Origin: Gemmatimonadota bacterium
GTDB lineage: Bacteria; Gemmatimonadota; Gemmatimonadetes; Gemmatimonadales; GWC2-71-9
Direction: 5' to 3'
Length of the DNA: 64,000 bases
Assembly (NCBI GenBank): GCA_022563595.1
Contig: JADFNB010000002.1
Location: forward strand, 53,510-117,509
Each line of letters starts with the position of its first letter. Within the stretch, counting starts at the first letter, position 1. A model generated the notes under the pieces. The model was not told the origin of the DNA and did no database searches. It worked only from the letters and a program-made list of their open reading frames with translations. Both the position numbers and the translations under genes were made by a program. Shown in pieces: positions 8,231-58,587 of the stretch.

Positions 8231-8248
8231 GGCACAACCTCTCGGCCG

Positions 8249-8434
8249 CTACCGCGTAAGCAGGCCAGCAGCAACTCCCACCGGAATGACGATGTAGAGA
8301 ACGACATCACGGACCAGATAGAATACGATGAACAGGACTACCAGCTTCCATCCGCGTTTTCTGACGAGCCCCTTCCAGCCAAGAGCCCGCCGTTCCTCGC
8401 GCAGCGTCCGGACGAACGTCCTGATCCGCTTCAT
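8249..8434 (-). CDS. Small hypothetical membrane protein
   Basis: 61 aa with a basic N-terminus followed by one or two hydrophobic helices (LVVLFIVFYLV, VIPVGVAAGLL). Sits just after the nrdJ terminator hairpin. Confidence 0.4.
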   Translation of the reverse strand: MKRIRTFVRTLREERRALGWKGLVRKRGWKLVVLFIVFYLVRDVVLYIVIPVGVAAGLLTR

Positions 8435-8453
8435 CGTCTTGCTAAGATAATGT

Positions 8454-8481
8454 AAAAGGGGAGCGCTCGGCAGCGCGCCCC
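8454..8481 (-). terminator. Intrinsic terminator downstream of nrdJ
   Basis: Minus strand reads GGGGCGCGCT-GCCG-AGCGCTCCCC followed by TTTT. The stem is 10 bp with one mismatch. It lies 26 nt after the nrdJ stop. Confidence 0.6.
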
Positions 8482-8506
8482 TGCGTGGCTCCGTTCCTCC
8501 TCACGT

Positions 8507-18230: not shown

Positions 18231-19076
18231 GTGACTCGCTGCGATCATTGCGGTACAGAGAACGATGATACGTCGACATACTGTGCAGACTGTGGGAAAA
18301 CCCTGGAAACCAGGAGTTCCGGCTTGACGGGACCTTCGCGTCCGGCGGCGGCGCCCGATGATCGTGCGTCCGGTGCCATCTGTCAGCAGTGCGGACAGCC
18401 GCTCGTGCGGCGGCGCTCCCGGCCGCTCACCAGTCCGGTTTACCTGCTTCAGCTCGATGAGTCCGGGACCGAGATCGACCGCCACAAGCTCGAGCGGGAA
18501 GAGACCTCGATCGGGCGCGTGGACGCCGACATCAAGTTCCCCGACGACCCGTTCATATCGCCAGTCCATGCGCAGCTCAGCGTGCGTGGCAGCGAGCTGT
18601 ACCTCCGCGACCTCGGGAGCCGCAACGGGACCTGGTACTTCATCGAGGAACCATACCGGCTGCAAGACGGCGACCTCATCCTCTTGGGATCGCAGGTCAT
18701 CCGATTCCGGCGGCTGGGATATCCCGGTCCCCAGCCTCCCGAACATGACGCGACCCGCCGGCTCGGTAGCCTGGTCCCCGGCGCGGACATCGCGAGCCTG
18801 ACTCAGCTCCGCAGCGACTCGAGTGCACGGGACGTGCTGCACCTGTCGCCGGGACGCAGCGTCGTCATCGGTCGCGAGGAGGGCGACTGGATCTTCCCGT
18901 ACGACCCGTCTTTGAGCGGTCGGCACGCGGAAATCCGCTCAGAGGACGCCGATTTCATCGCCATCGACCTGGAGAGCCGCAACGGTGTGGCGATAGGCGT
19001 GCGGGGTGAGGTTCGCGTGCAGCCCGGGACGCGGCTGCTCATCGGTGACAAGCTTCTCAGGGTGGAGCTGGCGTGA
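18231..19076 (+). CDS. Zinc-ribbon protein with two FHA domains
   Basis: Begins TRCDHCGTENDDTSTYCADCG. FHA 1 is TSIGRVDADIKFPDDPFISPVHAQL...GSRNGTW. FHA 2 is VVIGREEGDWIFPYDPSLSGRHAEI...ESRNGV. Confidence 0.85.
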   Translation: MTRCDHCGTENDDTSTYCADCGKTLETRSSGLTGPSRPAAAPDDRASGAICQQCGQPLVRRRSRPLTSPVYLLQLDESGTEIDRHKLEREETSIGRVDADIKFPDDPFISPVHAQLSVRGSELYLRDLGSRNGTWYFIEEPYRLQDGDLILLGSQVIRFRRLGYPGPQPPEHDATRRLGSLVPGADIASLTQLRSDSSARDVLHLSPGRSVVIGREEGDWIFPYDPSLSGRHAEIRSEDADFIAIDLESRNGVAIGVRGEVRVQPGTRLLIGDKLLRVELA

Positions 19077-20779: not shown

Positions 20780-21801
20780 GCTTGTTCGGGTCAAAGAAAC
20801 CGTCTGTCACGATCTCGGTCTTCGGCAAGACCGACGTCGGGAAGACGCGCGATCATAACGAAGATTGCTTCCTGGTCGCGAACCTCACGACGAGGACGGC
20901 GTCGCTCAAGCCCGAGATACGCGAGCACACCGTGGGCGACAAGGGCTCCCTCTTCATGGTAGCCGACGGTATGGGCGGGGCGGCGGCCGGCGAGGTTGCG
21001 AGCCAGTTGGCGACCGATACTATGTACGAACACCTGATATCGACCTGGTGTGACGACGACGAGAGCACGCCGCAGCAGTTCGCCTACCGCCTCAAGGAAG
21101 CGGTCGAACGGGCGAACGAACAGATTCACGAGTACGCGAAGCAGCGTCCCGAGATGCGGGGAATGGGTACCACGACGACCGCGGTCGGCGTGCTGGGCGA
21201 CCACCTGTACCTCACGCAGGTCGGCGACTCACGGGCATACCTGGTGCGCGCCGGGCGGGCGGTGCAGATCACGAAGGACCAGTCATTGATGCAGCGTCTC
21301 GTCGACGCCGGTGAACTCACCGAAGAGGAGGCCGAGAAGAGCGAGCGGCGGAACATCATTCTCCAGGCGCTCGGACCCGAGGCTAAGGTACGTGTGGACC
21401 TCACCTCCCAACAGCTCCGCAAGGGCGACACAGTCGTCTTGTGCTCCGACGGGCTCTCGGGGCAGGTGCAGCGGAACGAGATTGGTGCGATCGTGTCCAA
21501 CGACGACAAGGATCTCATCGAGATCTGCACCGAACTGATCGGCCTGGCGAACGAGCGTGGCGGCCCCGACAACATCACGGTGGTGGTCGCTCGGATAGGC
21601 GGCGACGGCCTCGACGATGGCGGCGGCAAGGACCCGGTAGGCCACCAGATCTATCCATTGCTCGATACCGAATCCACGACCGAGCCGGTGCCGGTCTACA
21701 AGGGCAGCCCGCCACCCGAGCCCAAGGGTGCGGCACACGCAATACTGGTCACCGCAGCCGCGGTGATCGCGCTCGCCGCGGCGATTCTCTTGCTCACCTA
21801 G
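20776..21801 (+). CDS. PP2C-family Ser/Thr phosphatase with C-terminal TM anchor
   Basis: GTG at 20776 overlaps the kinase stop (GTGA). Contains TDVGKTRDHNEDCF, MVADGMGG, LCSDGLSG and GGPDNITVVV. C-terminal helix AILVTAAAVIALAAAILLL. Confidence 0.9.
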   Translation: MSLFGSKKPSVTISVFGKTDVGKTRDHNEDCFLVANLTTRTASLKPEIREHTVGDKGSLFMVADGMGGAAAGEVASQLATDTMYEHLISTWCDDDESTPQQFAYRLKEAVERANEQIHEYAKQRPEMRGMGTTTTAVGVLGDHLYLTQVGDSRAYLVRAGRAVQITKDQSLMQRLVDAGELTEEEAEKSERRNIILQALGPEAKVRVDLTSQQLRKGDTVVLCSDGLSGQVQRNEIGAIVSNDDKDLIEICTELIGLANERGGPDNITVVVARIGGDGLDDGGGKDPVGHQIYPLLDTESTTEPVPVYKGSPPPEPKGAAHAILVTAAAVIALAAAILLLT

Positions 21802-21809
21802 CGTCCTCC

Positions 21810-23234
21810 GTGAAGATACAGATCAAGGTCCTGGGGGGAGCGAGAGCCGGCATGACGGGCGTGTTCTCCCAGGCGCGCGTAGTGATCGGCCGGCACCCCA
21901 ATTCCGACCTGCCGTTCGATCCCGACCGGGACCTGGACGTCTCGGGACGGCACGCCGAGCTTCTCCGCGAGGGCAACGCGTGGTACGTGCATGACCTAGG
22001 CAGCCGCAACGGCACCTTCGTCAACGGCCACCGCATCACGCACCACACCAAGCTCGACGATACCGATCAGATCCGCTTCGGCGAGGATGGCCCGCGCCTC
22101 GAGATCCATCTGGTGGGCGACGGGACACCCGACCGGCGACCCGCCCCGGCGGCCGGCGCGCCGACACCCACACCACGTGAGATGGCGGGCACGCCGCGCC
22201 CGGCCGCGCGGCGGGCGGGCAGCACGACCCAGCGAATTCGGATCGAGGTCGGGCGGCAGACCCGGAAGCTGCGGGCCGCGACCGGGGTAATCCTGTTCGT
22301 CCTCGTCGCGGTCAGCGCGTTCTTCATCGTCGGCAACCGCCGGCAGCAGCAGCGGCGCGAGCGTGACGTGCAGGCGATGCAGCTGCGCATCGACAGCATC
22401 CTCCGAGCCTCCGAAGAGGCTGTGGCGATGTTGCAGGGTCAGGTGGAAGGGCTCGCCGACGCGCTCCGAGGCTCGCAGTACGACGTACAACGCCTGCAGA
22501 GCAGCCTGGAGGCCGCGCGGGCGAGTGGCAGCGACGCCGAAGTCGAATCGCTCCGCCGGCAACTCGCCGTCGCGACGACAACCTTCAGGGCTCAGCAGCT
22601 CGCCGCGCAAGTCGACTACCGCGCCATCAACGAGGCGAACCAGTTCGCCGTGGCGATGATCTGGGTGGAGTTCGGCCAGAACGACATCGCCACCGGGACG
22701 GCGTTTGCGGTGACGAGCGACGGCAAACTGATAACCAACCGTCATGTCGTGGCCGGGGAGGACGGCTCACGCCGGCCGATACGCATTGCAGTCCAGTTCA
22801 ACGCCTCTGAACAGGTGTGGCAGGCGCGCCTGCTCACGATAGACCAGGACGTAGACCTCGCCGTCATTCAGGTGGACCGTATCCGCGGCGGGGTTCCCAC
22901 CGTTCAGGGGATCGGGACGGGCACGGCCGTGCCGGCTACCGGCGACCCGGTGGCGGTCATCGGGTTCCCGTTGGGCGATGATCTGCCGATGCGGTCCGCT
23001 GGGGAGGCGAACCTTATACGGAGCACCTTCACGGCGGGGACGGTGAGCAAGGTGATCCCCGATCTCATCCAGATCGACGGTTACGGAGCCCCGGGCTTGA
23101 GCGGCAGCCCCGTGTTCGACCGCGACGGGAACGTCGTCGCCGTGCTGTACGGTGCGCAACCCGGCACGAACGGCCGGATCGTGTTCAGCGTACCGCTCGA
23201 CTTCGTCACCGACCTGCTGCAGCAGACCAACTGA
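21810..23234 (+). CDS. FHA domain / TM / coiled-coil / trypsin-like (S1) serine protease fusion
   Basis: ORF 21441..23234 trimmed to the GTG at 21810, 9 nt after the PP2C stop. FHA segment is VVIGRHPNSDLPFDPDRDLDVSGRHAEL...GSRNGTF. TM segment VILFVLVAVSAFFIV. A heptad-like Gln/Leu/Ala-rich stretch follows. Catalytic triad context is NRHVV, DLAVIQV and GLSGSPV. Confidence 0.85.
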   Translation: MKIQIKVLGGARAGMTGVFSQARVVIGRHPNSDLPFDPDRDLDVSGRHAELLREGNAWYVHDLGSRNGTFVNGHRITHHTKLDDTDQIRFGEDGPRLEIHLVGDGTPDRRPAPAAGAPTPTPREMAGTPRPAARRAGSTTQRIRIEVGRQTRKLRAATGVILFVLVAVSAFFIVGNRRQQQRRERDVQAMQLRIDSILRASEEAVAMLQGQVEGLADALRGSQYDVQRLQSSLEAARASGSDAEVESLRRQLAVATTTFRAQQLAAQVDYRAINEANQFAVAMIWVEFGQNDIATGTAFAVTSDGKLITNRHVVAGEDGSRRPIRIAVQFNASEQVWQARLLTIDQDVDLAVIQVDRIRGGVPTVQGIGTGTAVPATGDPVAVIGFPLGDDLPMRSAGEANLIRSTFTAGTVSKVIPDLIQIDGYGAPGLSGSPVFDRDGNVVAVLYGAQPGTNGRIVFSVPLDFVTDLLQQTN

Positions 23235-40801: not shown

Positions 40802-42547
40802 CTATTGGTTGGCTGACTCGCAGAAGGTCGGTGGCTCGTACGTCCAGCCGCGGCGTAACCGGCGCTCCTCGCGGCGCATCTTGAACCGCACGTACCGCCC
40901 GGCGATCGAGCTGGCGATTCTCGCGCGGAGACCGAATTCCCGCTGCAGCTCTTTCAAGATGCCGCCGATCTTCTGTTTGAGCTGCGGATCGCGGCGAAAC
41001 CGCTGCTTCGCCGCCCAGAGCAGTGCGGCCATGCTCCCGGGCAGAACGCGGGCCTCCCATCGAATCCGACTCCTGATGCGCAGGTCGGGATGAAACTTAT
41101 AGCGCTTCCATCCTTGCAGCATCGTCCGCGCCACCCGCACGATACTTGGACCGTTGATCTCAAAATCTCGATGGAAGGCTTTCAGGAGGAACTCCTGTTC
41201 CTGGCCGGGTGCGAAGTGAGGATGTTTATGCGCGAATCGGGCCTGTCCATGTCGATCGGCCTCGGGGCACTCGTCCCGGTCGAGCAACGTGCCGTTGCGC
41301 ACGTGCTCCTCGTAGAGCGGCGTTCCCCCAATCGGCGTGTACAGCATGAACTGATGGAACTCCGTATCGTGACTCACCGCGTAGTCGATTACGGCGTCAA
41401 TGTTTTCCGGGGTGTGATCCTCGAGACCGATGATCGTCGATCCCAACACGCGAATGCCGTGCGACTGGAGCGTGCGTACCAGCTCGCGCGTGTCTGTGCC
41501 TCTGAGCTTGCGGTAGGAGGCGTGCTCCCCCTCGAGTCCCAACCAGACCCACGAGATGCCCAAGGCCACGAGCTGTTCGATGGTGTATTGGCGCAGAACA
41601 TTGGCGGAACTGAACACGTATAGGGCCCAAGGCTTATCGTGCTCGACCATCAGATCCAGTAACCGTAGCGCGCGTTTCTTATATAGGAGAAAGTTCTCGT
41701 CCATCACAAAGAACGACTTCACCTGAAGCGCGTCCGCCAGCTCGCACATAACCTCGAACAGCTCGTCACCCGTCTCGTAGAAGTGGATGAATTTGCCCTT
41801 CCCGCCGAACATCGCCGAGGTCGCACAGAAGTTGCAGCCCATGGGACACCCAACCGACGGGATCAGCGTGGCCGCCGTGTCGCCCGGCTTCTGCCGCAGC
41901 GCGATGCCCATCACCCGAGTCCCGATCCCAGACGGGATGTGCGGATGGCGTATGGGCCGGTGCTCGTCCTCACCGAGGAAACGACGCATCCAGCGCACCC
42001 CCTCCCCGATCACGATGTGGTCCGCATCGATCTCGGCAGCGAGGTTGGGCAGATTCACCACGTGGCCGCCCACAACGATCGTGGCCTCTGGAAGGTGCTC
42101 GCGCACCAACTCGCACATCTTCCGCACCTTGCCCACGTTCGGCTGGATCGCCGAGATCCCGACGATATCGTACCGGTTGGTGCTGATCTCCTGAACGAAC
42201 CGCTCCAGGGAGGGGAAGTCGAGCAGCGTGGACGGGGCGTCGAGGTTGGCCTGGATCAGCATGATACCGCACGACCGGTGAAACATCCGAAGCGAGAACG
42301 CACCCTGCACGCGCGAGACCTGATTGTGATACAACTCCATCGGGTTGATGGCCCGGCTCCCGTACGCATCATCTCGGGCGTAGGGACCGAACACGCTGGT
42401 CAAGAGCACACGCGCGCGGGATCCCCGGGGGTGCCGGGGGTGCTCGAACCGAAGCGCCATGTCCGCCGAGCTCACCGATTCCTGTTGCGGGACGGCGAGA
42501 TCGGACATGGCGGGTTCCGGAACGGCGTGCTCCCTTGTAACAGTCAT
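40802..42547 (-). CDS. Cobalamin-binding-domain radical SAM enzyme (class B rSAM)
   Basis: Trimmed to MTVTREH, preceded by a GGAGGT SD. The N-terminal B12-binding-like region contains DIVGISAIQPNVGKVRKMCELVREHLPEATIVVGGHV. The CxxxCxxC motif is VGCPMGCNFC. The C-terminal tail is long and basic. Confidence 0.85.
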   Translation of the reverse strand: MTVTREHAVPEPAMSDLAVPQQESVSSADMALRFEHPRHPRGSRARVLLTSVFGPYARDDAYGSRAINPMELYHNQVSRVQGAFSLRMFHRSCGIMLIQANLDAPSTLLDFPSLERFVQEISTNRYDIVGISAIQPNVGKVRKMCELVREHLPEATIVVGGHVVNLPNLAAEIDADHIVIGEGVRWMRRFLGEDEHRPIRHPHIPSGIGTRVMGIALRQKPGDTAATLIPSVGCPMGCNFCATSAMFGGKGKFIHFYETGDELFEVMCELADALQVKSFFVMDENFLLYKKRALRLLDLMVEHDKPWALYVFSSANVLRQYTIEQLVALGISWVWLGLEGEHASYRKLRGTDTRELVRTLQSHGIRVLGSTIIGLEDHTPENIDAVIDYAVSHDTEFHQFMLYTPIGGTPLYEEHVRNGTLLDRDECPEADRHGQARFAHKHPHFAPGQEQEFLLKAFHRDFEINGPSIVRVARTMLQGWKRYKFHPDLRIRSRIRWEARVLPGSMAALLWAAKQRFRRDPQLKQKIGGILKELQREFGLRARIASSIAGRYVRFKMRREERRLRRGWTYEPPTFCESANQ

Positions 42548-42559
42548 CACAGATACCTC

Positions 42560-42571
42560 CAGAGATCTCTG
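42560..42571. promoter_or_regulatory. Perfect 12-bp palindrome abutting the rSAM Shine-Dalgarno
   Basis: CAGAGATCTCTG is its own reverse complement. It shares one base with the SD (CCTCC on the plus strand, 42556-42560). Confidence 0.3.
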
Positions 42572-42806
42572 CAATTGGTATCCCACCGCGCTAAAGGTCA
42601 AGGCACCTGCGCCACATAAAGCCGAGTATACATGTCGGTAATCCCCGGATTCCTCCGACCGTAGTTCGTGATTCGCTCTGTCGTGGACATCATCTTCGCG
42701 ATCCCGTTGCTCGTCGCACCGGAACGGTTCGGCCACCGCATCGCAAAGCCGCACATCGGTCCTGTTACTGCGCGTCTCGTGGGTGCAGCATTGCTTGCTA
42801 TCGCCG

Positions 42807-44222
42807 TCACGCTGCCGGCCCGATCTCCACCTTGATCTGCCGCCATTGCCCCTGCCGGAATCGTATCATGCTCAGCACCGAGCGCGTGACGTGGCCGAGC
42901 ACGATCGCGAGCCAGATATGCCACGCCCGCAGTCCCCAGACCGACTGGATCACGGCGCACATCCCGAGCGGTACCACGATTTGGGAGACGATCGAGATGT
43001 AGAGTGGACTCTTGGTGTCGCCCGTTCCCTGCAAACCGCCCGTGTACGCGAGCGCCACCGTAACAAAGAGTCCTGAGACACTCAGGTATGCCAACAGCTG
43101 CGTGCCGATATCCATCACTAGCGGGTCTTCCATGCCGAAAAAGCCAAGGAGTACGCGAGGGAAAAACAAGAAGATCAGTCCAACGCTGACTGCAACGCCC
43201 AGGCCGATGCGCGCGGCCACGTGCACGCCCTGGATCGCTCGCTCGGGATGTCCCGCTCCCAGATTCTGCCCCGCCACCGCGGCAGCGGCGGCCATCAGTC
43301 CGACCGACGTCCAAGTGATCAAGGAAAAGAGTTGGGTGTAGCCGACCGTGTATGCGGCCTGCGCCTGCCCGCTCGCAGCGAGCGACCCGACAAACGCGAG
43401 CAGCACCACGCCCCCGATGTTCATCGCGATCCCCTGGAGTCCGGTCGGGATGCCGAACCGGAAGAGCGCGCGAATGATCGACCAGTCAGGTCTCCAACTC
43501 ATGCCACGACGGAACTGAACCACCCAGGTATGCGAAAAGAACAACCGGTACGCCGCCACGAGCGCGATCACTCCACCCGCGATCACCGTTCCCATGGCGG
43601 CACCCGTCGTCCCGAATCCCGGAATGGGGCCGAACCCTCGGATGAGGATGACATTCAGCACGAGGTTCAGCACCGTGAGTGCGATGCCGTACCGCAGTGG
43701 CGTGCGGGCGTCTCCCGCCGCGCGTAGCGCCCCACCTAGCATGAAGAACATCATCATCCCGAAACTGAACACGAACAGGATGCGCAGGTACGGCAGCGCT
43801 TCGGCGCGCACCTCGGCGGTGGCATTGACCAGCCCCAGTAACGGTGGCGCAAGGAAATACCCAACAGGTGCCAGTATCACCACGGTCATGAGCACGGCGG
43901 TCAGGAATGCCTGGTAGACCGTCCGGTTGACCTTGTCGGGTTCGTTGGCGCCTGCGAACCGCGCCACGAGAATACCCATACCCGAGAAGAGCGACATGAT
44001 GAACACCACAACCACCAGGAAGATCTGCCACGAGACCCCGATCGCCGCATTGCCCGTGTAGCCCACGTAGTGTCCGACCATCACGTGATCCACAATGCCC
44101 TGGAGCCCGCCGATGACGTTCTGCAGCATCGTGGGCCAGGCGAGCTTCCAGACCGCGCGGCCAATCGGACCTTCGACGATCGATCGGTCGAATGACTTGA
44201 TGGGCTTGGTTTCGTCGGGCAT
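42807..44222 (-). CDS. MATE-family (MOP superfamily) efflux transporter
   Basis: Trimmed to MPDETKPIKSF. Contains LAWPTMLQNVIGGLQGIVDHVMVGHYVG and has 12 TM-like segments. Confidence 0.85.
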   Translation of the reverse strand: MPDETKPIKSFDRSIVEGPIGRAVWKLAWPTMLQNVIGGLQGIVDHVMVGHYVGYTGNAAIGVSWQIFLVVVVFIMSLFSGMGILVARFAGANEPDKVNRTVYQAFLTAVLMTVVILAPVGYFLAPPLLGLVNATAEVRAEALPYLRILFVFSFGMMMFFMLGGALRAAGDARTPLRYGIALTVLNLVLNVILIRGFGPIPGFGTTGAAMGTVIAGGVIALVAAYRLFFSHTWVVQFRRGMSWRPDWSIIRALFRFGIPTGLQGIAMNIGGVVLLAFVGSLAASGQAQAAYTVGYTQLFSLITWTSVGLMAAAAAVAGQNLGAGHPERAIQGVHVAARIGLGVAVSVGLIFLFFPRVLLGFFGMEDPLVMDIGTQLLAYLSVSGLFVTVALAYTGGLQGTGDTKSPLYISIVSQIVVPLGMCAVIQSVWGLRAWHIWLAIVLGHVTRSVLSMIRFRQGQWRQIKVEIGPAA

Positions 44223-44363
44223 TGGCCTGGCAGAATGTAAGTGCGCAGCGTCGAGTCGCATACGAGCAACTCAAACTTCGCGCGGTCGGCCCCTTCTAAT
44301 GGCGCGGGCGGGTCGAGGCGGCGCGGCCATAGTAGCGCCGCAAGACTTGGCCTTCAATAAGAG

Positions 44364-44388
44364 CGCCCGGGGAATGCCGGGCGTTTTT
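44364..44388. terminator. Hairpin plus T5 tract between the IPCT/DIPPS-like gene and the MATE gene
   Basis: CGCCCGG (44364-44370), loop GGAATG, CCGGGCG (44377-44383), then TTTTT on the plus strand. The minus-strand reading has AAAAA before the stem and CTCTTATT after it. Confidence 0.5.
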
Positions 44389-44503: not shown

Positions 44504-45967
44504 CTATGGCACCCGTAAGAGCTGTTCTGCTTTCCGGCCAGCTTCAGATCGGGGCGTCACGGCACTTGTCCCGGGACGAGAGGCCCGCCCGCGACGAATC
44601 GGCGCTCCGGCGGAACTCGGGCTCAGACCCCAACCGCGCACCATGACCGCAGCAACGACTGCATGGGAGAAGAGGCCAACGGCGATCAGGGCTTGGAAGG
44701 GGAAACCAGCAATGGCTCCCGTGGCGATGACCAACACACGCAGATCGCGGTGCTTGAGACGGTCGAGAACGTCGTGAGGATAGGCTCCCTTGTACTGCAA
44801 GGAGAACTCCTTGGTGACGTAGCTGACGAGAATGAACCCGGTCGCTGCAACCAGTCCGGCAATCCACGGCACGGATCCCGGGACCTGCCTGGTGTAGGCC
44901 GCGACGATCGCCACGGTGATGACCAGGTCCCCGTAACGATCCAGCATCGTGTCTAGCCACGCACCTCGCGGCGTGGCGAGGCCCTTGAGTCTCGCGATCT
45001 CCCCGTCACAACCGTCGATGACGGATGCTGCCAGTATCAGCACACCTCCCAAGGCTTGTGCGACGTAGCCACCGAGAGCGAGAAACGCTGCACCGATCAC
45101 GGTGGTCAAGAACGAAACCACCGTGATCTGGTTGGGCGTCACATTGGTTCGCGCTAGGTAGCCCGACAGGCGTGTTGACAGCGGACGATTGATCCACGCC
45201 GATACGAAGCCGTCCTGGCTACCTTTGTCCAGCGACGCTCGCAGTAGCCGCCCGGCTTCGGCTAGCGCGTCCGGCGTGTCTACATCCAGCCAGCGGCAAC
45301 CGGTGACGTCCACGGCGCGTACCAGACCACGACCTGCCAGGTCGGCGATCGCGTGCGACAGGGCATAGAGGCTGGAGTCGTGGACCCTGTCCAGCACCGC
45401 GAAGATCGCCGGGCTGCACAGAAAGGCTCCGGTGTCAATGGCATCCCACTCACCGAGATCCTTGCCGATGGCTTGGACGCGCCCGTCGACGCAACAAACC
45501 TTCGTCGCGTCGTCCAGGTCGAAGACCTGCTGCCGATCGCGGTCAACTGCCACGCATACCTCACCCCCGGCGGGAGGATCTTCCAGGAGCTTCCGCAGGA
45601 TCTCCGGGTCAAGGATATGATCGGCCATCAGGAGGAGGAATTGTCTGTTGCCGATGCAGCCCGCTGCCGCACTAGTGCTCGCGCCATTACCCAGATGCCA
45701 GTTCTTGGCGTCTACGCACCTGACGCCGACATCGAGACGCTCGGCGAAGGCTGCCACGTGGGTGCGGACTTCCTCTCCTCGGTGTCCAACCACCACAACG
45801 AACTGCCGCACGCCAACTGTCACGCAGGCACGCATGCATCGCTCGACGAGCGACTGGCCCCACACGGGAACCAGAGGCTTCGGCTCCCCATTCATCCGCA
45901 TACCGCGGCCAGCTGCTAGGATGACGGCGGTCGGCACCTCTGCGCCGTCCGATCGGTGTTGAGTCAC
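44504..45967 (-). CDS. Bifunctional nucleotidyltransferase / CDP-alcohol phosphotransferase (IPCT/DIPPS-type architecture)
   Basis: GTG at 45967 (GTGA overlap with the IMPase stop). N-terminal AVILAAGRGMRMNGEPKPL. The C-terminal polytopic domain carries a complete CDP-OH-P motif, DGCDGEIARLKGLATPRGAWLDTMLD, which fits D-x2-DG-x2-AR-x8-G-x3-D-x3-D. Confidence 0.8.
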   Translation of the reverse strand: MTQHRSDGAEVPTAVILAAGRGMRMNGEPKPLVPVWGQSLVERCMRACVTVGVRQFVVVVGHRGEEVRTHVAAFAERLDVGVRCVDAKNWHLGNGASTSAAAGCIGNRQFLLLMADHILDPEILRKLLEDPPAGGEVCVAVDRDRQQVFDLDDATKVCCVDGRVQAIGKDLGEWDAIDTGAFLCSPAIFAVLDRVHDSSLYALSHAIADLAGRGLVRAVDVTGCRWLDVDTPDALAEAGRLLRASLDKGSQDGFVSAWINRPLSTRLSGYLARTNVTPNQITVVSFLTTVIGAAFLALGGYVAQALGGVLILAASVIDGCDGEIARLKGLATPRGAWLDTMLDRYGDLVITVAIVAAYTRQVPGSVPWIAGLVAATGFILVSYVTKEFSLQYKGAYPHDVLDRLKHRDLRVLVIATGAIAGFPFQALIAVGLFSHAVVAAVMVRGWGLSPSSAGAPIRRGRASRPGTSAVTPRSEAGRKAEQLLRVP

Positions 45968-46779
45968 GCCAGTGCCTGCACAATCTCATCCGCCAACTCC
46001 CGAGTGGACGCGGCGATAACGGAGCATCTGTCTGTCAGGCCCCCTGCTGGCGGGAGGGCCTGGCCCTCCGGACCAACCACACAGCCGCCAGCCTCCTCCA
46101 CTACCAGGGCGGCTGCGAAGAAGCTCTCGGGTGTGAGTCGTTGTCGAATGTCGATATGGGCGTCGAGGGCGCCGCTCGCGACCAACGATAGGGCACGTGA
46201 CGCACAACCAAAGCAGCGGACGCCTCGGGCCCGCTCCATAATGGAGCCCAGCTCGGACGAGGGCGCATAGTGGTTTAGCTCGACTGAGATCATCGCTTTT
46301 GCAATCCGGGTTACGCCAGAAGTTCGCAGGCGCGCATCTCCGCGGTAGGCTCCCCCACCCCGGTGGCCGAGTACCGGCATCGACTTCTCCAGGTCACCGA
46401 CCAGGGCCCACTCCACCCTGCCCACCGCAAGGGGTCCCTCTGCGGGCAGCACAGCCACACATACCGCCGACGGACCGACCGCGCACGCATAGTTGTCGGA
46501 GCCATCTACTGGATCAAGGATGAACCGGTGCTTAGGTGGGCCTTGTCCAAGATCAATCACGCCGGATTCCTCAGACAGCAGCAAGCTCTCCGGCGCTTCC
46601 CGCTGAAGGAATAAAACAGCGCGCCGCTCCGCCGTCAAATCGAACGGCCGGGACAGATCACCTTTCGGGTTGATTCCGGGCGGTCGGCCGGTTGCGCCAT
46701 CGGGGGTGGCCAAGGCCTCTCGCACCGCGGCGTGGAGACCTAGAAGGAGCTGACCCAGTGGTTCGGAGTGAAGCGGCAT
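45964..46779 (-). CDS. Inositol monophosphatase-family phosphatase
   Basis: 271 aa with LLLSEESG and FILDPVDGSDNY (DPxDG[ST]xN). Confidence 0.85.
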   Translation of the reverse strand: MPLHSEPLGQLLLGLHAAVREALATPDGATGRPPGINPKGDLSRPFDLTAERRAVLFLQREAPESLLLSEESGVIDLGQGPPKHRFILDPVDGSDNYACAVGPSAVCVAVLPAEGPLAVGRVEWALVGDLEKSMPVLGHRGGGAYRGDARLRTSGVTRIAKAMISVELNHYAPSSELGSIMERARGVRCFGCASRALSLVASGALDAHIDIRQRLTPESFFAAALVVEEAGGCVVGPEGQALPPAGGLTDRCSVIAASTRELADEIVQALA

Positions 46780-47102: not shown

Positions 47103-47330
47103 CGGAAGTCGAAGACGCTGGGCGAGCCTGACGTGGTGAACCGTGGAGGACTATACGAAGCGATGGAACTGGACAGCCGACTGGAGTTGATTCGGAGCCT
47201 GATGCCCCTGGGTTTGATCGCTCTCTACGGAGGAACTCGAGCGGGAACTCGTCAGCTTGGCCGGTGCACCGCACAACCGCAAGCTGGAGGGTCGTAAGCA
47301 CTACCTACCAAACACGCTCACGGGCGCCCT
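47103..47330 (+). mobile_element. Frameshifted N-terminal relic of a DDE-transposase-like gene
   Basis: One frame reads ...MELDSRLELIRSLMPLGLIALY. After a frame shift it continues EELERELVSLAGAPHNRKLEGRKHY. From memory this resembles the helical N-terminus (LIP-LGL...E-EV--LAG-RY-R) of some IS transposases. No catalytic region is present. Confidence 0.3.
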
Positions 47331-47440
47331 CCGAGCGCGGCCTCGAGCCCGCGACCATTCCGCACAGCGACCTAGCACATCATCGTCCCGCCGCATACCT
47401 TCGGTATCGACTAGTCTGTCGCCCACCTAGGAGAATCGCG

Positions 47441-49471
47441 ATGTCCCGGTCTCACAAGTACCTCGGCGTCGTCGGCGTGGTAGCAGGTTTGACGCTGTCC
47501 GTAAACACAGCCTCGGCGCAGCTCCCGCCAGCCAGCCCCGAGCAGGAAGCGGCGGGCGCGCGTGTTGCGTCCGTCGTGTTCGCCGAGCCCACCATCATTG
47601 CTGAGCGCGGCGACACTGTCACCCTCGCGCCGTCCTTCTTCGATGCGGACGGCAACCGTGTCGAGGGCGCCATGCATCTGTTGTTCGCCCGGGGCAACCA
47701 ATTGCGGCGGGTCGGCTCCATGCTCGACCAGAGTGGCCGATTCCTGGCCAACAGGCCGGGCACGAGTACGGTGATCGCGCTCGTTCGCGTTGCCGAGGAT
47801 GGAGATTCGTATCGAGGCATTGACGGTATCAAACAGGTGGGCACGATCCGGGTCACGGTCCGGGACTATCCAGCGTCCAGGATCGCGATCGCCGAACCTG
47901 CGTACGCGCCCTACGCCGGGACCTCGTTCAAGATGCACGGCACCGTATGGACAGATCACGACACGGAGCACAGCTCGGCCACGATCGAATGGCGGAGCGA
48001 GAACCCATCGGTGGCCACGGTGACACCGAGCGGCGTGTTGTCGCTCAACCAGCCTGGTACCGTAACGCTCGTTGCCAGCACCGAGAACGGTATATCCGAA
48101 CCATTGCAATTGCAGGTCGTCGCAAACCCGGTTCGGACGCTCGACATCAGCCCGACCATGGCGGCGGCGCGCGCCGGCGACGTCGTGATGTTCGATGTCA
48201 ACGCACTCGACGGCCGGGGCCGTGCGATCGATGACGTCGCGCTCTCCTATTCGGTGTTTGGGCTCGATTCCATGGGCGGCCAGCTCTTCGAGGACGGCAG
48301 CTTCGTCGCCGAGAATCCAGGCGCCTATCGCGTCGTCGTGAACATGGGCGACCTCGCATCGAGTGCCATAGTCGAAGTCGCTCTACGCCCGAACCCGTGG
48401 GAGATCAACCTCGTCGATCACGGCGCCGTGGCGCACGTCGCGACCAGCGACCTCTGGGTCTTCGAGGGCAACGACGGTCGTGACTACGCCTACACTGGTA
48501 CCCATGCGAAGGGCGGGGGGGAGCGCTTGTTCGTCTGGGACGTGACCGATCCCGCCAACCTCGTCATGGTGGATTCCGTGGTGGTGAACGCCCGTGTGGT
48601 GAACGACGTCAAGGTGAGCGACGACGCGTCGTGGGCCATCATCACACGTGAGGGTGCAAGCGACCGCAAGAATGGCATCGTCGTGCTGGACCTCGCGGAC
48701 CCAGCGCACCCCACGATCATTGCCGAATTCACGGACTCCCTCACCTCCGGCATTCACAACGTGTGGATCAACGGGGATGTCGTCTATGCCGTCAACGACG
48801 GCACGTCGGCGATGCACATCCTCGATCTGAGTGATCCCGCCAACCCGCGGCACGTCCGCCGCTGGGAGCTGCGTCCCGGTGACACCAACAAATCCCTGCA
48901 CGACGTGTGGGCCGATGGGCAGTACGCCTATCTCTCGTATTGGGATGATGGTCTCGTGATTCTCGACGTCGGCGCGGGCACGCATGGCGGCACGCCGGCC
49001 GATCCGCAGTTCGTTTCGAGTATCGCGTACGGCATGGGCAACACGCACGCGGCGTGGCGCGCAGGCAAGTATGTCTTCCTCGGTGACGAGATCGGCACGC
49101 CCGACGGCATGCGCGGTTACGTCCACGTCATCGACGTCGAGGATATCGACAACCCGACAGAGGTTGCCAAGTACGAGGTGCCTGAGGCCGGCGCGCACAA
49201 CATCTGGGTCGAGGACGGTCTCCTGTACATCGCGTACTACCAGGGCGGCCTGCGGATCGTCGACATCACTGGTGAACTACGCGGCGATCTCTACCGACAG
49301 GGCCGCGAGTTGGCGTTCTACAGAACCTCCGCCGGCGAAGGAGAGGCGATTACACCCCACCAGCCAATGGCCTGGGGTCCGCAGCCGTACAAGGGCAACA
49401 TTTTCGTGAGCGACATGAACAGTGGGCTATGGGTCATCAAGTTCGCGCAGCCGCAAGTCCTGACGCCGTAG
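47441..49471 (+). CDS. Secreted protein with Big_2-like Ig domains and LVIVD-repeat beta-propeller
   Basis: Trimmed to MSRSHKYLGVVGVVAGLTLSVNTASAQ, with an AGGAGA SD at 47428-47433. Big_2-like NPSVATVTPSGVLSLNQPGTVTLVAS. LVIVD-type repeats GLVILDV, GLRIVDI and GLWVIKF. Confidence 0.8.
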   Translation: MSRSHKYLGVVGVVAGLTLSVNTASAQLPPASPEQEAAGARVASVVFAEPTIIAERGDTVTLAPSFFDADGNRVEGAMHLLFARGNQLRRVGSMLDQSGRFLANRPGTSTVIALVRVAEDGDSYRGIDGIKQVGTIRVTVRDYPASRIAIAEPAYAPYAGTSFKMHGTVWTDHDTEHSSATIEWRSENPSVATVTPSGVLSLNQPGTVTLVASTENGISEPLQLQVVANPVRTLDISPTMAAARAGDVVMFDVNALDGRGRAIDDVALSYSVFGLDSMGGQLFEDGSFVAENPGAYRVVVNMGDLASSAIVEVALRPNPWEINLVDHGAVAHVATSDLWVFEGNDGRDYAYTGTHAKGGGERLFVWDVTDPANLVMVDSVVVNARVVNDVKVSDDASWAIITREGASDRKNGIVVLDLADPAHPTIIAEFTDSLTSGIHNVWINGDVVYAVNDGTSAMHILDLSDPANPRHVRRWELRPGDTNKSLHDVWADGQYAYLSYWDDGLVILDVGAGTHGGTPADPQFVSSIAYGMGNTHAAWRAGKYVFLGDEIGTPDGMRGYVHVIDVEDIDNPTEVAKYEVPEAGAHNIWVEDGLLYIAYYQGGLRIVDITGELRGDLYRQGRELAFYRTSAGEGEAITPHQPMAWGPQPYKGNIFVSDMNSGLWVIKFAQPQVLTP

Positions 49472-49479
49472 ACAATCAG

Positions 49480-50586
49480 ATGACGTTTGGACGACGGCTG
49501 CTGATGATTCTGGGCGGGGCGAGCCTGCTCGCATCCCCCTCCGTCGCGCAGGACAACGGACCCACCGCTCGATACTGGGTGTACGTCGCGAACGAATCGT
49601 CGGATCTCGTTTCGCGAGTACGCTTCGGTCCTGATGGGTTGACCGAAGAGAAGACGATTCCCGTCGGTGCGCGCCCCGCGGATCTGGACGGGGCGCATGG
49701 GATTGCCGTCGCAGCGAACGGCAAGTTCTGGTATGTGTCGATCGCGCACGGTGCGCCCTATGGCTCGATCTGGAAGATGGAGTCGGGGACCGACGTGTTC
49801 GTGGATTCTGTGACGGTGGGTCTCTTCCCAGCCACCATGTCCCTGACGCCCGACGCGTCGAGTCTCTTCGTCGTCAATTTCAATCTCCATGGCAACATCA
49901 TGCCGAGTTGGGTCTCCAGCGTGTTCACGCCGTTCATGAACGAGACGGCACAGATCGAAACGTGTATCATGCCGCACGGCAGCCGCATCACGCGCGACGG
50001 CATGACCCACTACTCGACGTGCATGATGAGCGACCAACTCGTCGAGATCTCCACCACCGGACATCGCGTCACGCGTCGTTTCCGCCTCACCGACGGGCAC
50101 GAGGCCCTCATGGATCTGGCGGAGACCGCCAATCGCGCGATGGGTGCCGGGCGGTGCAAGCCAACGTGGGTCGTCTTGGATCCTGAAGACGAACATCTCT
50201 ACGTCCCGTGCAACGGGCGGAAGGAAGTGTTGGAGATCGATCGCAGCACCATGACTGTGCGCCGGCGGTTTGCGACAGGCGCGGGACCCTACAATGCCGA
50301 TGTCAGTGCGGACGGTCGATACCTGGTCGTGACACTCAAAGGGGCGCAGGCGGTCGCGGTGTTCGACCTGGAGACCGGGAAGGAGACGCGTATCGAGACC
50401 TCCCAGCCCGTCACCCACGGCGTCGTCATTTCTCCAGATTCACGGTACGCGTTCGTGTCGAATGAAGCGGTCGGTGCGACACGCGGGACGGTCGACGTAT
50501 TCGATCTCGCGTCCAAGACGCGTGTCGCTTCAGTCGCAGTGCAGTACCAGCCGGGTGGGATTGGGTTCTGGAAGATGGAGCAGTGA
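49480..50586 (+). CDS. Secreted YVTN-type beta-propeller repeat protein
   Basis: Trimmed to MTFGRRLLMILGGASLLASPSVAQ. Repeats include VSADGRYLVVTLKGAQAVAVFD and ISPDSRYAFVSNEAVG...VDVFD. Confidence 0.75.
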   Translation: MTFGRRLLMILGGASLLASPSVAQDNGPTARYWVYVANESSDLVSRVRFGPDGLTEEKTIPVGARPADLDGAHGIAVAANGKFWYVSIAHGAPYGSIWKMESGTDVFVDSVTVGLFPATMSLTPDASSLFVVNFNLHGNIMPSWVSSVFTPFMNETAQIETCIMPHGSRITRDGMTHYSTCMMSDQLVEISTTGHRVTRRFRLTDGHEALMDLAETANRAMGAGRCKPTWVVLDPEDEHLYVPCNGRKEVLEIDRSTMTVRRRFATGAGPYNADVSADGRYLVVTLKGAQAVAVFDLETGKETRIETSQPVTHGVVISPDSRYAFVSNEAVGATRGTVDVFDLASKTRVASVAVQYQPGGIGFWKMEQ

Positions 50587-50686: not shown

Positions 50687-51109
50687 TCACGACGGCACCA
50701 CGCTAAACCCCGCGATCGCGAAATTGCGGTCGAACGTGAACGCCACGTCCATGCCACGCGCACGCATGATCGCGAAGCTCACCGCATCGGTCAGCGGAAA
50801 CGCCTGATCGCAATACCGCTGAATCCAGTCCGCAAACGCGGCCGCCTGGACGGCTTTGTCGGCGAAGACCTCGTCGATGAGCGGATCCGCCAGCAGGGTT
50901 TCCAGATGCTCGGCGGCTCTGATGGGTCCAATGGCGTGAAGGAGGTGCAGGTGCAGCTCGGCCAGGATCAGGTCCGTCACGATGAGCCGCGCGCGCTCGG
51001 CCCGCAGTCGGCATAGCGTTCGCGCAGCGTCCGCGTGGTACCGATCTCGGCGGTGAAAGGCGGCGAGCCACGCCCCCGTGTCCACCAGGACGCGATCCCT
51101 CAGTCGCAT
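50687..51109 (-). CDS. vapC: PIN-domain toxin VapC
   Basis: Trimmed to MRLRDRVLVDTGAW. Acidic PIN residues lie in VDTG, LAELH, LTDAVS and TFDRNF. Overlaps the antitoxin gene by 10 nt. Confidence 0.85.
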   Translation of the reverse strand: MRLRDRVLVDTGAWLAAFHRRDRYHADAARTLCRLRAERARLIVTDLILAELHLHLLHAIGPIRAAEHLETLLADPLIDEVFADKAVQAAAFADWIQRYCDQAFPLTDAVSFAIMRARGMDVAFTFDRNFAIAGFSVVPS

Positions 51110-51378
51110 TCCTCCGCATGGGGTTCGACCACGCGGCGAGTGGGACATCCCGCCGCCGCGTATTCGTCGTGCCGCGTCGAGAGGTCGGCCGGCACGTCCG
51201 GGGCATCGAAGCCGCCGATCAGCCCGAGCACCGGGTCGTGCGACCCGACCTCATCGACCGCCCAGCGCCGTACGGCCTCCCGGACCGTCTCCGCCATGGA
51301 TAGACCTTGCCGCCGGGCCAGCCCTTTCAATAAGGAACGGTCGCGCTGATCGAGGTACAGCTGAAATGGCTTCTTCAT
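51100..51378 (-). CDS. vapB: Ribbon-helix-helix (CopG-like) antitoxin VapB
   Basis: Start trimmed to the ATG at 51378; the track start at 51384 is a TTG. Begins MKKPFQLYLDQRDRSLLKGLARRQGLSMAETVREAV, an RHH pattern. The tail is acidic. Confidence 0.75.
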   Translation of the reverse strand: MKKPFQLYLDQRDRSLLKGLARRQGLSMAETVREAVRRWAVDEVGSHDPVLGLIGGFDAPDVPADLSTRHDEYAAAGCPTRRVVEPHAEECD

Positions 51379-51407
51379 GTACAAGTATTAATGTAGCATA
51401 ATACATG
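51376..51407. promoter_or_regulatory. AT-rich nested inverted repeats at the vapB start (putative autoregulatory operator)
   Basis: Inverted pairs are CATGTA (51376-51381)/TACATG (51402-51407) and GTATTA (51385-51390)/TAATAC (51399-51404). ATGTA is also directly repeated. I counted 10 G+C in the 40 nt at 51371-51410. Confidence 0.35.
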
Positions 51408-56448: not shown

Positions 56449-58341
56449 TCACCGCCCCGCGAGCAACGCGTCGACTTCCTGCCGGCCCTCGAGCAAGTGT
56501 TCGATGTCTTCGGAGAGGTCGGACGCGGCCGCCAGATCGGCGGTCACGCTCTCGATCGTGCCTGCACCGGCCCGCATCCGGAGCAAATCGAGCCGCAGGG
56601 TCTCCAGCGCGGTGACCGCCTCGGAGAGCCCACGTTGCGCGCCGTCGCGGAGCTCCCGGAGGTCACCGGTCAGCTGGTCGCGTTGCTGGGCAGGTCCCGG
56701 TCGGGCCGGTCCTTCCACGTCAGCGATCGCCGCGTCGAGCTGCTCCACCCGTCCCCGCATGCGCTGCGCGTCGGCCTCGAGACGTCGCACCACCTCGGGC
56801 AAGTTGCCCAGCGCCTTCCGCGTCTGCTTGGGAAGCTCTTCGAACAGCCGATCGGCGGCCATGCCGATCGCCAGTGCCGTCGGGCGGTAGGTCGCGGCCA
56901 CGGCGGTCGGGAGGCGCTTCAATCCCAGCCGGCCGATCTTGAACATCAGCCGTCCGATCCATCCCTTCCAGAGCCTGAGCCAACGCTCGCCGGCGATGTC
57001 GCGTCGCCGGCCGTGCCGATACGCGGCGATTGAGGCGCCGAGGAGGCCGGCGGTGCCGAGCAGCCACCCAAGACCTTCCACTACCGGCCCCGAGCCGAAT
57101 GTTGCGACGAGAACGATGGCAAGCGCTGCGCCCCCGAGCCCAACCGCCGCAGCGATCCGGGCCACACGTTCTACCAGCTTCGGATGCCGACCGTACTCGA
57201 ACTCCAGCTCCTCCCGCCGGCGCTCGTGCGCCGTCTTGAGCGCGAGCACGGTTTCGTCCTGGCCATACCCGGTCTTGAGGAGCTGTCGGGCGCGCTGCGC
57301 CATCCCGCCGAACGACGCGAGCGCGAACGCCACGAGGACGCCGAGCGCTACCACTCCCGCGACCGCGCTTCCGCCTGCTGCGGCGAGCAACAGCGGTGCC
57401 TCGATGAACAGGAGCAATAGCCCGAGCGCGGAGGAGTTCGCGATCTCCTGGTTCTTCTTCAGGAACACCCGCAGCGCGACCGGCAGCTCGGTACGACGCT
57501 CGAAGGTGTTGCCGAGCGCCTCGGCGAGGGCCTCTCCATCAGCGAAGCGGTGGGTCGGCTCTTTGGCCAGGCAACGGTCGACGATCTTGGCGAGCTTGGC
57601 CGGCACCTCCGGCTCCACCGATCGGACGGGCGGCGCCTCTTCGGTGATGTGCTTGGCGAGGATCGCGGAGATCGACGGTCCTTCGAACGGGAGCTTGCCG
57701 GTCAGCGCGAGGTAGCCGACCACGCCAAGCGAGTACAGGTCGCTGCGCCCATCGACTGCTTCACCGCTCGCCTGCTCGGGACTCATGAACTCCGCCGTCC
57801 CCAGTACTTCGCCGGCGCTGGTCATGCCCGGTCCCTCACGCACGTGCGCAATCCCGAAATCGGTGACCAGCGCCCGGCCCGACCCGGCTTCGAGGAGGAT
57901 GTTGTCCGGCTTCACGTCGCGGTGCACGACCCCTTGAGCGTGCGCGTACGCCAGAGCCCATGCTACCTCGCGGAGGACGCGCGCGGATTCGGCGAAGGGG
58001 ATCGGTCCCGTAGTACGGATGCGTTGGCCGAGCGTCTCGCCGTTGATGTACGCCATGACGAAGAACACGAAATCGTCGATCTCGTCCACGGCGAAGATCG
58101 GCACGATGTTGGGATGCGAGAGCTTGGCGGCGGTGCGCGCCTCGCGGAGGAAGCGATCGCGCAGCGAGGCTTGAGTTGCGAGCGTGGGTGGAAGCAACTT
58201 CAGCGCAACGGGTCGGTCGAGGGCGACCTCGTGCGCGAGGTACACGATCCCCATCCCGCCGCGGCCGAGCTCCCGATCGAGCGAGTATCGACCCACAAGC
58301 GACTCCTGGAGGGCCAAGAACTCGGCGGTGCCTTCCTCCAT
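56449..58341 (-). CDS. Membrane Ser/Thr protein kinase with C-terminal coiled-coil region
   Basis: Trimmed to MEEGTAEFLALQ. Kinase motifs HRDVKPDNILL, DFGIAHV and GTAEFMSPEQ. Several TM segments follow, then a helical Arg/Leu/Glu/Asp-rich tail. Confidence 0.9.
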   Translation of the reverse strand: MEEGTAEFLALQESLVGRYSLDRELGRGGMGIVYLAHEVALDRPVALKLLPPTLATQASLRDRFLREARTAAKLSHPNIVPIFAVDEIDDFVFFVMAYINGETLGQRIRTTGPIPFAESARVLREVAWALAYAHAQGVVHRDVKPDNILLEAGSGRALVTDFGIAHVREGPGMTSAGEVLGTAEFMSPEQASGEAVDGRSDLYSLGVVGYLALTGKLPFEGPSISAILAKHITEEAPPVRSVEPEVPAKLAKIVDRCLAKEPTHRFADGEALAEALGNTFERRTELPVALRVFLKKNQEIANSSALGLLLLFIEAPLLLAAAGGSAVAGVVALGVLVAFALASFGGMAQRARQLLKTGYGQDETVLALKTAHERRREELEFEYGRHPKLVERVARIAAAVGLGGAALAIVLVATFGSGPVVEGLGWLLGTAGLLGASIAAYRHGRRRDIAGERWLRLWKGWIGRLMFKIGRLGLKRLPTAVAATYRPTALAIGMAADRLFEELPKQTRKALGNLPEVVRRLEADAQRMRGRVEQLDAAIADVEGPARPGPAQQRDQLTGDLRELRDGAQRGLSEAVTALETLRLDLLRMRAGAGTIESVTADLAAASDLSEDIEHLLEGRQEVDALLAGR

Positions 58342-58381
58342 GGGGTTGACGATGCCCCGGCGGGACCGGGACCGCAAGGTG

Positions 58382-58454
58382 CATATAGGACTTCGATCGC
58401 CCCTCCCAAGTAGAGCCGGGTGAGCGGACCATCCAGGGAGCCCGACGTGGCTGG
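58382..58454 (-). promoter_or_regulatory. Conserved upstream element, copy A (includes candidate promoter)
   Basis: By hand alignment 58 of 75 columns are identical to 60636-60709. The minus strand contains TTGGGA (58409-58404), a 16-nt spacer and TATATG (58387-58382). It lies 41 nt upstream of the kinase ATG. Confidence 0.6.
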
Positions 58455-58587
58455 GTAATACCCGGACGAGCGACATGTCGGACGTCGGCCGTGACCACCA
58501 CGGCTTTCGAAACGGCATGGGCTGTGTCGTCGCGTGTTCCGTCGCGTGCAGGCCAGGGTCTAAACCGTCTCTACCGTCCTTACCGTC

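Follow-up and report, generated by a model that had tools for sequence, protein, structure and literature searches.

A 64,000-nucleotide stretch of contig JADFNB010000002.1 from a Gemmatimonadota bacterium (the whole stretch is called the window below) carries a pair of overlapping minus-strand genes which, with a probability that we put at about 70%, make di-myo-inositol-phosphate (DIP) by way of CDP-inositol and then di-myo-inositol-phosphate-phosphate (DIPP). The upstream gene (45964-46779) encodes a 271-aa protein of the inositol monophosphatase (IMPase) family, the proposed phosphatase converting DIPP to DIP and Pi. The downstream gene (44504-45967) encodes a 487-aa fusion of an NTP-transferase with a CDP-alcohol phosphotransferase, of the type of the inositol-1-phosphate cytidylyltransferase/DIPP synthase (IPCT/DIPPS). 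Both open reading frames, called at these positions in the initial annotation of the window, were recovered here. From the observed homology, fold, motifs, synteny and domain fusions we infer the substrates, the product and the role. The reading is based on the full-length match to IPCT/DIPPS, the N-terminal domain nearest to IPCTs, the linkage to genes for the synthase of myo-inositol-1-phosphate (MIPS) and for IMPase, the phosphatase fusions, the acceptor pocket, the six transmembrane (TM) helices and the replaced CDP-diacylglycerol contacts.

In the proposed pathway, the cytoplasmic IPCT domain would form CDP-inositol from CTP and L-myo-inositol-1-phosphate, and the six-helix DIPPS domain would join CDP-inositol to a hydroxyl of a second inositol-1-phosphate, releasing DIPP and CMP. 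The motif D-x2-DG-x2-AR...G-x3-D-x3-D would form the DIPPS metal site, with D343 as the likely base. The IMPase-family protein encoded by the overlapping upstream gene would then dephosphorylate DIPP to DIP, an anionic compatible solute whose role may be osmotic, pressure or heat protection. The supply of inositol-1-phosphate would require a MIPS gene elsewhere in the genome.

Family, motifs and predicted fold of the fusion protein

The Pfam domains found in the fusion protein were NTP_transf_3 (residues 14-146, 2.4e-20) and CDP-OH_P_transf (residues 277-387, 8e-13). The N-terminal cytidylyltransferase (IPCT) domain corresponds to residues ~12-245 (45233-45934), and the membrane (DIPPS) domain, consisting of a juxtamembrane helix and six TM helices, to residues ~250-450 (44618-45220). 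The GxGxR nucleotidyltransferase head noticed earlier is indeed present as G20-x-G22-x-R24 within the motif A-A-G20-R-G22-M-R24 ... K30-P-L, of which G20, G22, R24 and K30 are invariant in the alignment. Likewise, the exact motif D-x2-DG-x2-AR-x8-G-x3-D-x3-D was found in the translation at residues 318-343 (44939-45016), where it reads D318-G-C-D321-G322-E-I-A325-R326-(8)-G335-A-W-L-D339-T-M-L-D343 and matches the eight-residue CDP-alcohol phosphotransferase signature exactly. No variation was seen in either alignment (A1 or A2) at D318, G319, D321, G322, E323, G335, D339 or D343, and C320, A325 and R326 are invariant in A1 only.

The top NCBIfam model for the fusion protein was NF041135, the equivalog of the Thermococcales IPCT/DIPPS (1.6e-78, 264.6 bits), with residues 13-436 aligned to positions 2-407 of the 419 in the model. 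The models that followed were much weaker: archaetidylinositol-phosphate synthase with 84 bits, PIPSynth with 46 bits and the BT1523-type with 45 bits. Membership in the phosphatidylinositol-phosphate (PIP) synthase/PgsA family was not indicated, as the NCBIfam scores were 45-46 bits compared with 264.6 for IPCT/DIPPS, and the structures 6h53 and 5d91 matched with ~25-27 bits. The best PDB match by sequence (phmmer) was the Archaeoglobus fulgidus IPCT/DIPPS 4mnd, over the full length (3.6e-56). The N-domain matched the A. fulgidus IPCT 2xme (3.7e-26) and the Thermotoga maritima IPCT 4jd0 (1e-13), with MurU and GlmU behind them.

The AlphaFold2 model of the fusion protein, built on 21 sequences, had a mean pLDDT of 85.9. 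In it, a Rossmann-like head is followed by a single juxtamembrane helix and six TM helices (helices at residues 254-271, 278-298, 301-328, 333-361, 365-392, 407-419 and 423-447) and then by disordered residues 454-487. Extra C-terminal TM helices were not found in the model. A Foldseek search with this model returned 4mnd first (8e-28, TM-scores 0.70/0.83), then AF2299 and then the IPCT structures 2xme and 4jd0, which were the top matches for the N-domain. The matches in sequence and in the predicted structure support the IPCT/DIPPS architecture that had been proposed in the initial annotation.

Relatives, synteny and phosphatase fusions

The word-indexed search for homologues returned 1085 proteins at E<=1e-5, and 496 representative clusters came from the exhaustive search (E<=1e-30). 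Close homologues are frequent among metagenome-assembled genomes (MAGs) of at least a dozen phyla. The names of these MAGs include Planctomycetota, Acidobacteriota, Gemmatimonadota, Zixibacteria, Krumholzibacteriota, Eisenbacteria, Nitrospinota, Desulfobacterota, Gammaproteobacteria, ANME-1, Thermoplasmata and Marine Group I.

The synteny was analysed by tblastn with the MIPS of locus L086, the window IMPase and the fusion across 84 non-redundant loci, and the counts refer to the 62 of these loci whose upstream sequence reached 2.5 kb or more. Of these, 27 have a same-strand MIPS gene at most 3 kb upstream and 30 have an IMPase-type gene immediately upstream of the fusion, with both genes in 12 loci and neither in 17. 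The IMPase gene is present in 19 of the 23 relatives whose identity to the window protein is 45% or more. Judged by gene order, the coupling of an IMPase-type gene to the fusion is conserved across phyla. In one relative of 62-64% identity (L089), only an IMPase remnant (9790-9960, residues ~210-266) was found upstream of the fusion gene.

The coupling also occurs within single polypeptides. Proteins P0052 (753 aa) and P0055 have three domains in the order IMPase::IPCT::DIPPS, while P0198, P0208, P0234, P0247, P0265 and the product of L093 8001-10130 are IPCT::DIPPS proteins with a C-terminal HAD-family hydrolase, which looks like a non-homologous phosphatase replacing the IMPase partner. L093, the single HAD-fusion locus inspected, is monocistronic with uninformative neighbours. 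The IMPase- and HAD-phosphatase fusions fit a phosphorylated product of the transferase.

Acceptor site and two classes of fused proteins

The acceptor-pocket residues S382-Y383-x-x-K386 and R407-D408-x-R410 (44738-44824) were located by alignment with MtPgsA1, in which R407xxR410 corresponds to R152xxR155 and S382/K386 to S132/K135. Residues S132, K135 and R155 of PIP synthase are predicted inositol-phosphate binders that have been probed by point mutation (PMC4634129). The PIP synthase residues that contact CDP-diacylglycerol (M69/L70 and P153) correspond to G319/C320 and D408 in the window protein, as in both A. fulgidus soluble-donor enzymes. The motifs D343-R-Y, S382-Y and R407-D-L-R410 of the window protein have the counterparts D-R-F, S-Y and R-D-E-R in AF0263.

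Based on these residues, two classes were recognised among the fused proteins of the best 150 representative clusters, class A with 98 clusters and class B with 36. Class A, to which the window protein belongs, carries D343-R-[YF], S382-Y383 and R407-D408-x-R410, and gathers all of the 80-odd loci proteins, the A. fulgidus DIPP synthase and AF2299; some of its members are extended by a HAD phosphatase at the C-terminus or by an IMPase at the N-terminus. In class B, the fourth Asp is followed by N or D, S-Y is missing, F, Y or I stands in place of R410 and ~20 residues are inserted between TM4 and TM5, and some of its members have a C-terminal LPG_synthase_TM (MprF-like) domain. Class A would use a soluble donor and a phosphorylated acceptor. 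Class B is the probable lipid type and a candidate family of CDP-inositol lipid synthases. The residue rule (R-D-x-R, S-Y and D-R-Y) would separate solute-type from probable lipid-type fusions and could reduce the mis-annotation of proteins as 'DIP synthase' in metagenomes.

The two classes bear directly on whether the window pair makes a lipid, as the initial annotation had allowed. The membrane domain would then pass inositol-phosphate to diacyl- or dialkyl-glycerol or to ceramide, giving an inositol phospholipid, as in the BEPIS or the proposed Bacteroides vulgatus-type route. Such a CDP-inositol lipid route is known from bacteria (Jorge et al. 2015, cited in PMC4587543; PMC9246714). Moreover, class B fusions occur in marine Gemmatimonadota: the gene of MBB27322.1 (L091 10001-11467; P0317/P0318) in a MAG is flanked by GT4-OEP on one side and MlaC-MMPL on the other, and P0280, P0298 and P0305 are further fusions of this class, whose members have either such flanks or a fusion to LPG_synthase_TM. 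The same domain is encoded 4 kb upstream of the fusion in L089, where AMP-binding, radical-SAM and LPG_synthase_TM genes lie 4-8 kb upstream.

The window protein, however, belongs to the other class and keeps R410, S382-Y383 and D343-R344-Y345. It has neither the TM4-TM5 insertion nor an LPG_synthase_TM fusion nor a MlaC/MMPL context, and the phosphate-binding Arg is retained. Lipid-acceptor enzymes usually carry three or four extra C-terminal TM helices (PMC4634129), whereas only six TM helices are present here. Lipid-transport genes were not found beside the pair. Furthermore, a phosphatase is not an obvious requirement of a lipid route, but the IMPase gene of the window shares bases with the fusion gene and, in some relatives, the two are one gene. 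A lipid product is thus quite unlikely, the R-D-x-R and S-Y motifs kept in the window protein being lost in the class with the lipid context.

The partner phosphatase

The 271-aa protein contains the Pfam domain Inositol_P (PF00459, 8.9e-20), which bears out the earlier recognition of an IMPase-family phosphatase. Its best NCBIfam match was PRK12676, an FBPase/IMPase model (4e-36, under the cut-off of the model), and its best PDB match was the Methanocaldococcus jannaschii IMPase 1dk4 (MJ0109; 9.7e-16). By these matches, the protein is nearest to the archaeal-type IMPase/FBPases. The metal ligands E70, D89 and D92 are retained, and signature 1 is present as E70-E71 and D89-P-V-D92-G-S.

The assignment to an ordinary-looking IMPase/FBPase family gives some room to another order of steps, the one first proposed for archaea and Thermotoga, in which inositol-1-phosphate is the substrate of the IMPase and free myo-inositol is what the transferase links to CDP-inositol, yielding DIP. 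Neither the end product nor the set of genes would differ. The A. fulgidus enzyme, however, reportedly uses inositol-1-phosphate and releases DIPP, a result ascribed to Rodrigues and colleagues in 2007. The pocket of the window protein also keeps the arginine that was assigned to the acceptor phosphate in the PIP synthase study (PMC4634129), and the free-inositol order is very unlikely.

Observations weighing against DIP synthesis

Several observations speak against the synthesis of DIP by the pair. The canonical metal-binding Asp of the phosphatase (D201 of MJ0109) is absent, its place being taken by S219 with E218 before it. The fusion protein is only 34-35% identical to the characterised A. 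fulgidus enzyme, and its score of 264.6 bits is below the NF041135 equivalog cut-off of 580. The neighbour-joining tree of the membrane domain, constructed without BEPIS, Thermotoga, Aquifex and Rubrobacter references, cannot place AF0263 relative to the clade of the window protein (29% bootstrap). AF2299, a paralogue that binds CDP-glycerol, shares the diagnostic residues of class A, and the membrane domain is slightly closer to it (40% identity compared with 35%). A MIPS gene was not found in the 64-kb window by tblastn with the MIPS of L086 (E<=1e-5), nor by Pfam scans of the other window genes predicted from the G + C content at third codon positions (GC3), in agreement with the initial annotation, and MIPS does not adjoin the pair in any examined relative at least 60% identical, including L082 and L090. 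Finally, in the literature that we found, DIP synthesis outside thermophiles is a genome prediction only, and no solute measurement was found.

The altered metal site is shared by the bacterial relatives. In a gap-free alignment, E218-S219 (codons at 46123-46128) stand opposite V200-D201 of MJ0109, and signature 2, [WYV]-D-x-[AC]-[GSA], was not found in the phosphatase; its fold family is not in doubt. All 32 aligned bacterial partners, including the partner genes from L001-L086, have T-[PA]-E-[SN]-[FY]-L-A-A in place of the canonical [WV]-D-x-A-A-G, while the partner IMPase of a thaumarchaeal locus (L076) keeps the canonical Q-D-M-A-A-G. This pattern points to a specialised subfamily of bacterial partner phosphatases with a non-canonical metal site. 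Tentatively, and at somewhat less than even odds, a non-thermophilic member of Gemmatimonadota and, by extension, many uncultured bacterial phyla may use DIP or a closely similar inositol phosphodiester as a functional compatible solute or piezolyte, with a dedicated DIPP phosphatase subfamily whose metal site has been rebuilt as E-S.

The score under the NF041135 cut-off indicates that the fusion protein and the Thermococcales enzymes are not close orthologues; membership in the wider family is compatible with it, the model being specific to that order. In the same neighbour-joining tree, the window protein and L082 group together with 100% bootstrap, and a 25-taxon clade of bacterial IMPase-linked proteins has 70%.

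The similarity to AF2299 raises the question of whether the product is another soluble phosphodiester, made from a different donor or acceptor, e.g., from a CDP-polyol and inositol-1-phosphate, to give a glycero-phospho-inositol type of compound that is then dephosphorylated. The membrane domain alone scores 135 bits against AF2299 and 84 bits against the DIPP synthase, AF2299 was crystallised with CDP-glycerol and has no assigned product (PMC4634129), and inositol-1-phosphate serving as the acceptor only would account for the MIPS linkage just as well. Since AF2299 shares the residues, these appear to mark the type with a soluble donor and a phosphorylated acceptor and not DIPP synthesis specifically. 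On the other side, the N-domain of the window protein is full-length and nearest to genuine IPCTs, whereas in AF2299 this domain is reduced to a short stretch resembling a cytidylyltransferase. L059 and L070, the fusions with the highest similarity to AF2299, are MIPS-linked full-length IPCT fusions, and a glycerol-phosphate cytidylyltransferase gene was not found nearby. We therefore regard such a product as unlikely. The similarity to AF2299 was also set aside as an argument against DIPPS function, all family members, including the MIPS-linked ones, being 36-49% identical to AF2299.

Comparison with known systems

The closest characterised system is the A. fulgidus IPCT/DIPPS (AF0263; 4MND, IPCT domain 2XME). 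It shares with the window protein the domain order, the signature including D-G-C-D-G-E-I-A-R, the motifs D-R-[YF], S-Y and R-D-x-R, and the juxtamembrane helix with six TM helices. Unlike it, the window protein carries two additional invariant basic residues ahead of TM5, R403 and K405, and ends in a disordered C-terminal tail of 35 residues. Moreover, its gene overlaps that of the partner phosphatase, and its host is a high-GC member of Gemmatimonadota and not a hyperthermophilic archaeon.

The island of hadal and deep-sediment Thaumarchaeota likewise combines a merged IPCT/DIPPS gene with an extra adjoining IMPase copy in non-thermophile hosts, and it has been read as a horizontally acquired DIP osmolyte/piezolyte module (PMC7265257, PMC8397731). 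The Marine Group I locus among our relatives is L076. The identity is 37%, and the archaeal IMPase has Q-D-M-A-A-G whereas the bacterial partners have T-P-E-S-F-x-A-A. Closer are the MIPS-IMPase-IPCT/DIPPS operons of uncultured Planctomycetota, Acidobacteriota and others (L086, L001, L002, L012), in which the fusion is 46-54% identical and is directly preceded, often with an overlap, by a gene of the same IMPase subfamily; these operons contain MIPS, which is missing from the window, L082 and L090.

The Rhodothermus marinus IPCT with BEPIS and the Bacteroides vulgatus-type cluster of NTP-transferase, CDP-AP and HAD genes resemble the window pair in that CDP-inositol is consumed by a CDP-alcohol phosphotransferase. 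In those systems, of which BEPIS was compared by description only, each activity has its own gene, a lipid serves as acceptor and IMPase is absent, while the window genes are fused, keep the phosphate-binding acceptor residues and are coupled to a phosphatase. AF2299 (4O6M) and the bacterial PIP synthases (5D91, 6H53) share the membrane fold, the catalytic signature and the acceptor-site R-x-x-R. AF2299 differs in having only a truncated cytidylyltransferase-like domain, and the PIP synthases differ in lacking the N-domain, in using CDP-diacylglycerol and in matching with the low scores given above.

Origin and distribution

The GC3 of the phosphatase gene (0.67, z = -4.8) and of the fusion gene (0.72, z = -3.3) are the lowest in the window, where the 37 other predicted genes have 0.81 +/- 0.03 with a minimum of 0.76. 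Because of the low GC3 and the integrase genes beside the pair in L082, the pair was probably acquired horizontally, perhaps fairly recently, which agrees with the literature on these genes (PMC8397731). In L082, the closest relative on a long contig, a mechanosensitive-channel gene (8137-8646) lies just upstream of the pair and integrase genes lie nearby. As a single case, these neighbours fit an osmotic role and a mobile origin.

A growth temperature of ~48 °C, estimated from the IVYWREL fraction (0.409 over 18,310 residues; Zeldovich regression), was rejected, 39 genes from a genome of 65% GC being too unreliable a basis.

DIP was for a long time taken to indicate life at more than about 55 °C in hot marine environments. 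Genes for IPCT/DIPPS have, however, been reported outside thermophiles: in hadal and deep-sediment Thaumarchaeota, from genomes and with transcripts at about 2 °C (PMC7265257, PMC8397731, PMC10773090), in Atribacteria of methane-hydrate sediment, from genomes (bioRxiv 10.1101/536078), and in SAR116 of the surface ocean, also from genomes (PMC12262181). Many close homologues are labelled in IMG as 'CDP-L-myo-inositol myo-inositolphosphotransferase'. The earlier description of the pair as noteworthy for this kind of genome was therefore too strong, with homologues in at least a dozen phyla and non-thermophile genes already published. Our literature search found no report of IPCT/DIPPS genes in Gemmatimonadota, and the present result adds this phylum to the known spread of DIP-synthesis genes; the pathway itself was already known. 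The phosphatase-coupled module is spread over Planctomycetota, Acidobacteriota, Zixibacteria, Krumholzibacteriota, Nitrospinota and others. As a prediction from genomes, this spread adds weight to the view of DIP as a general stress solute and not a speciality of thermophiles.

Gene layout and surroundings of the pair

The stop and start codons of the two genes overlap as GTGA (45964-45967, minus strand), read in the sequence as ...ctg gcG TGA ctc.... One caveat comes from the NCBI annotation of the identical protein MCH7873931.1 (P0121), which starts 10 codons later, at the second GTG (codon 11), and gives a 477-aa fusion protein and a 27-nt gap to the phosphatase gene in place of the overlap. 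In the relatives L082 and L090 (61-64% identical), the corresponding genes overlap by ATGA at this position and a GGAGG precedes the overlap by 8 nt; because of this, the long start with translational coupling is favoured for the fusion gene.

Two other assemblies share a 16-kb stretch containing the pair at 99.85% identity. As the flanks of the pair differ between L082 and the window, the conserved unit, judged by this comparison, is the two-gene pair. In the 242-nt gap 3' of the fusion gene, a consensus scan only indicated a terminator-like GC hairpin (44364-44383, minus strand), the possible end of a two-gene operon. Rfam families, tRNAs and a sigma-70-like promoter were searched for in the region of the pair, and none was found.

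On the same strand, 3' of the pair, lie a MATE efflux gene and a gene for a B12-binding radical SAM protein (40802-44261). The best NCBIfam matches of the latter were HpnJ and P-methyltransferases, all far under the cut-offs. Both genes are retained in the near-identical assemblies but are not neighbours of the pair in L082. The two, like the downstream SNF gene, were rejected as parts of the module, as none of these genes is beside the pair in L082 or L090 and the terminator-like hairpin lies between.

Divergent from the pair, the region 47264-50586 encodes a 735-aa LVIVD-repeat/Big_2 protein and a 385-aa beta-propeller protein (YNCE/lactonase-like), both with signal-peptide-like N-termini. 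It is followed at 50687-51384 by a PIN-domain gene with a small overlapping upstream open reading frame, which has the look of a VapBC-type toxin-antitoxin system. Elsewhere in the window (11210-13156, 18231-23234 and 56449-58518), three Ser/Thr protein kinase genes and genes for two FHA-domain proteins, one of them fused to a trypsin-like protease, form a dense eukaryote-like signalling set with zinc-ribbon N-termini.

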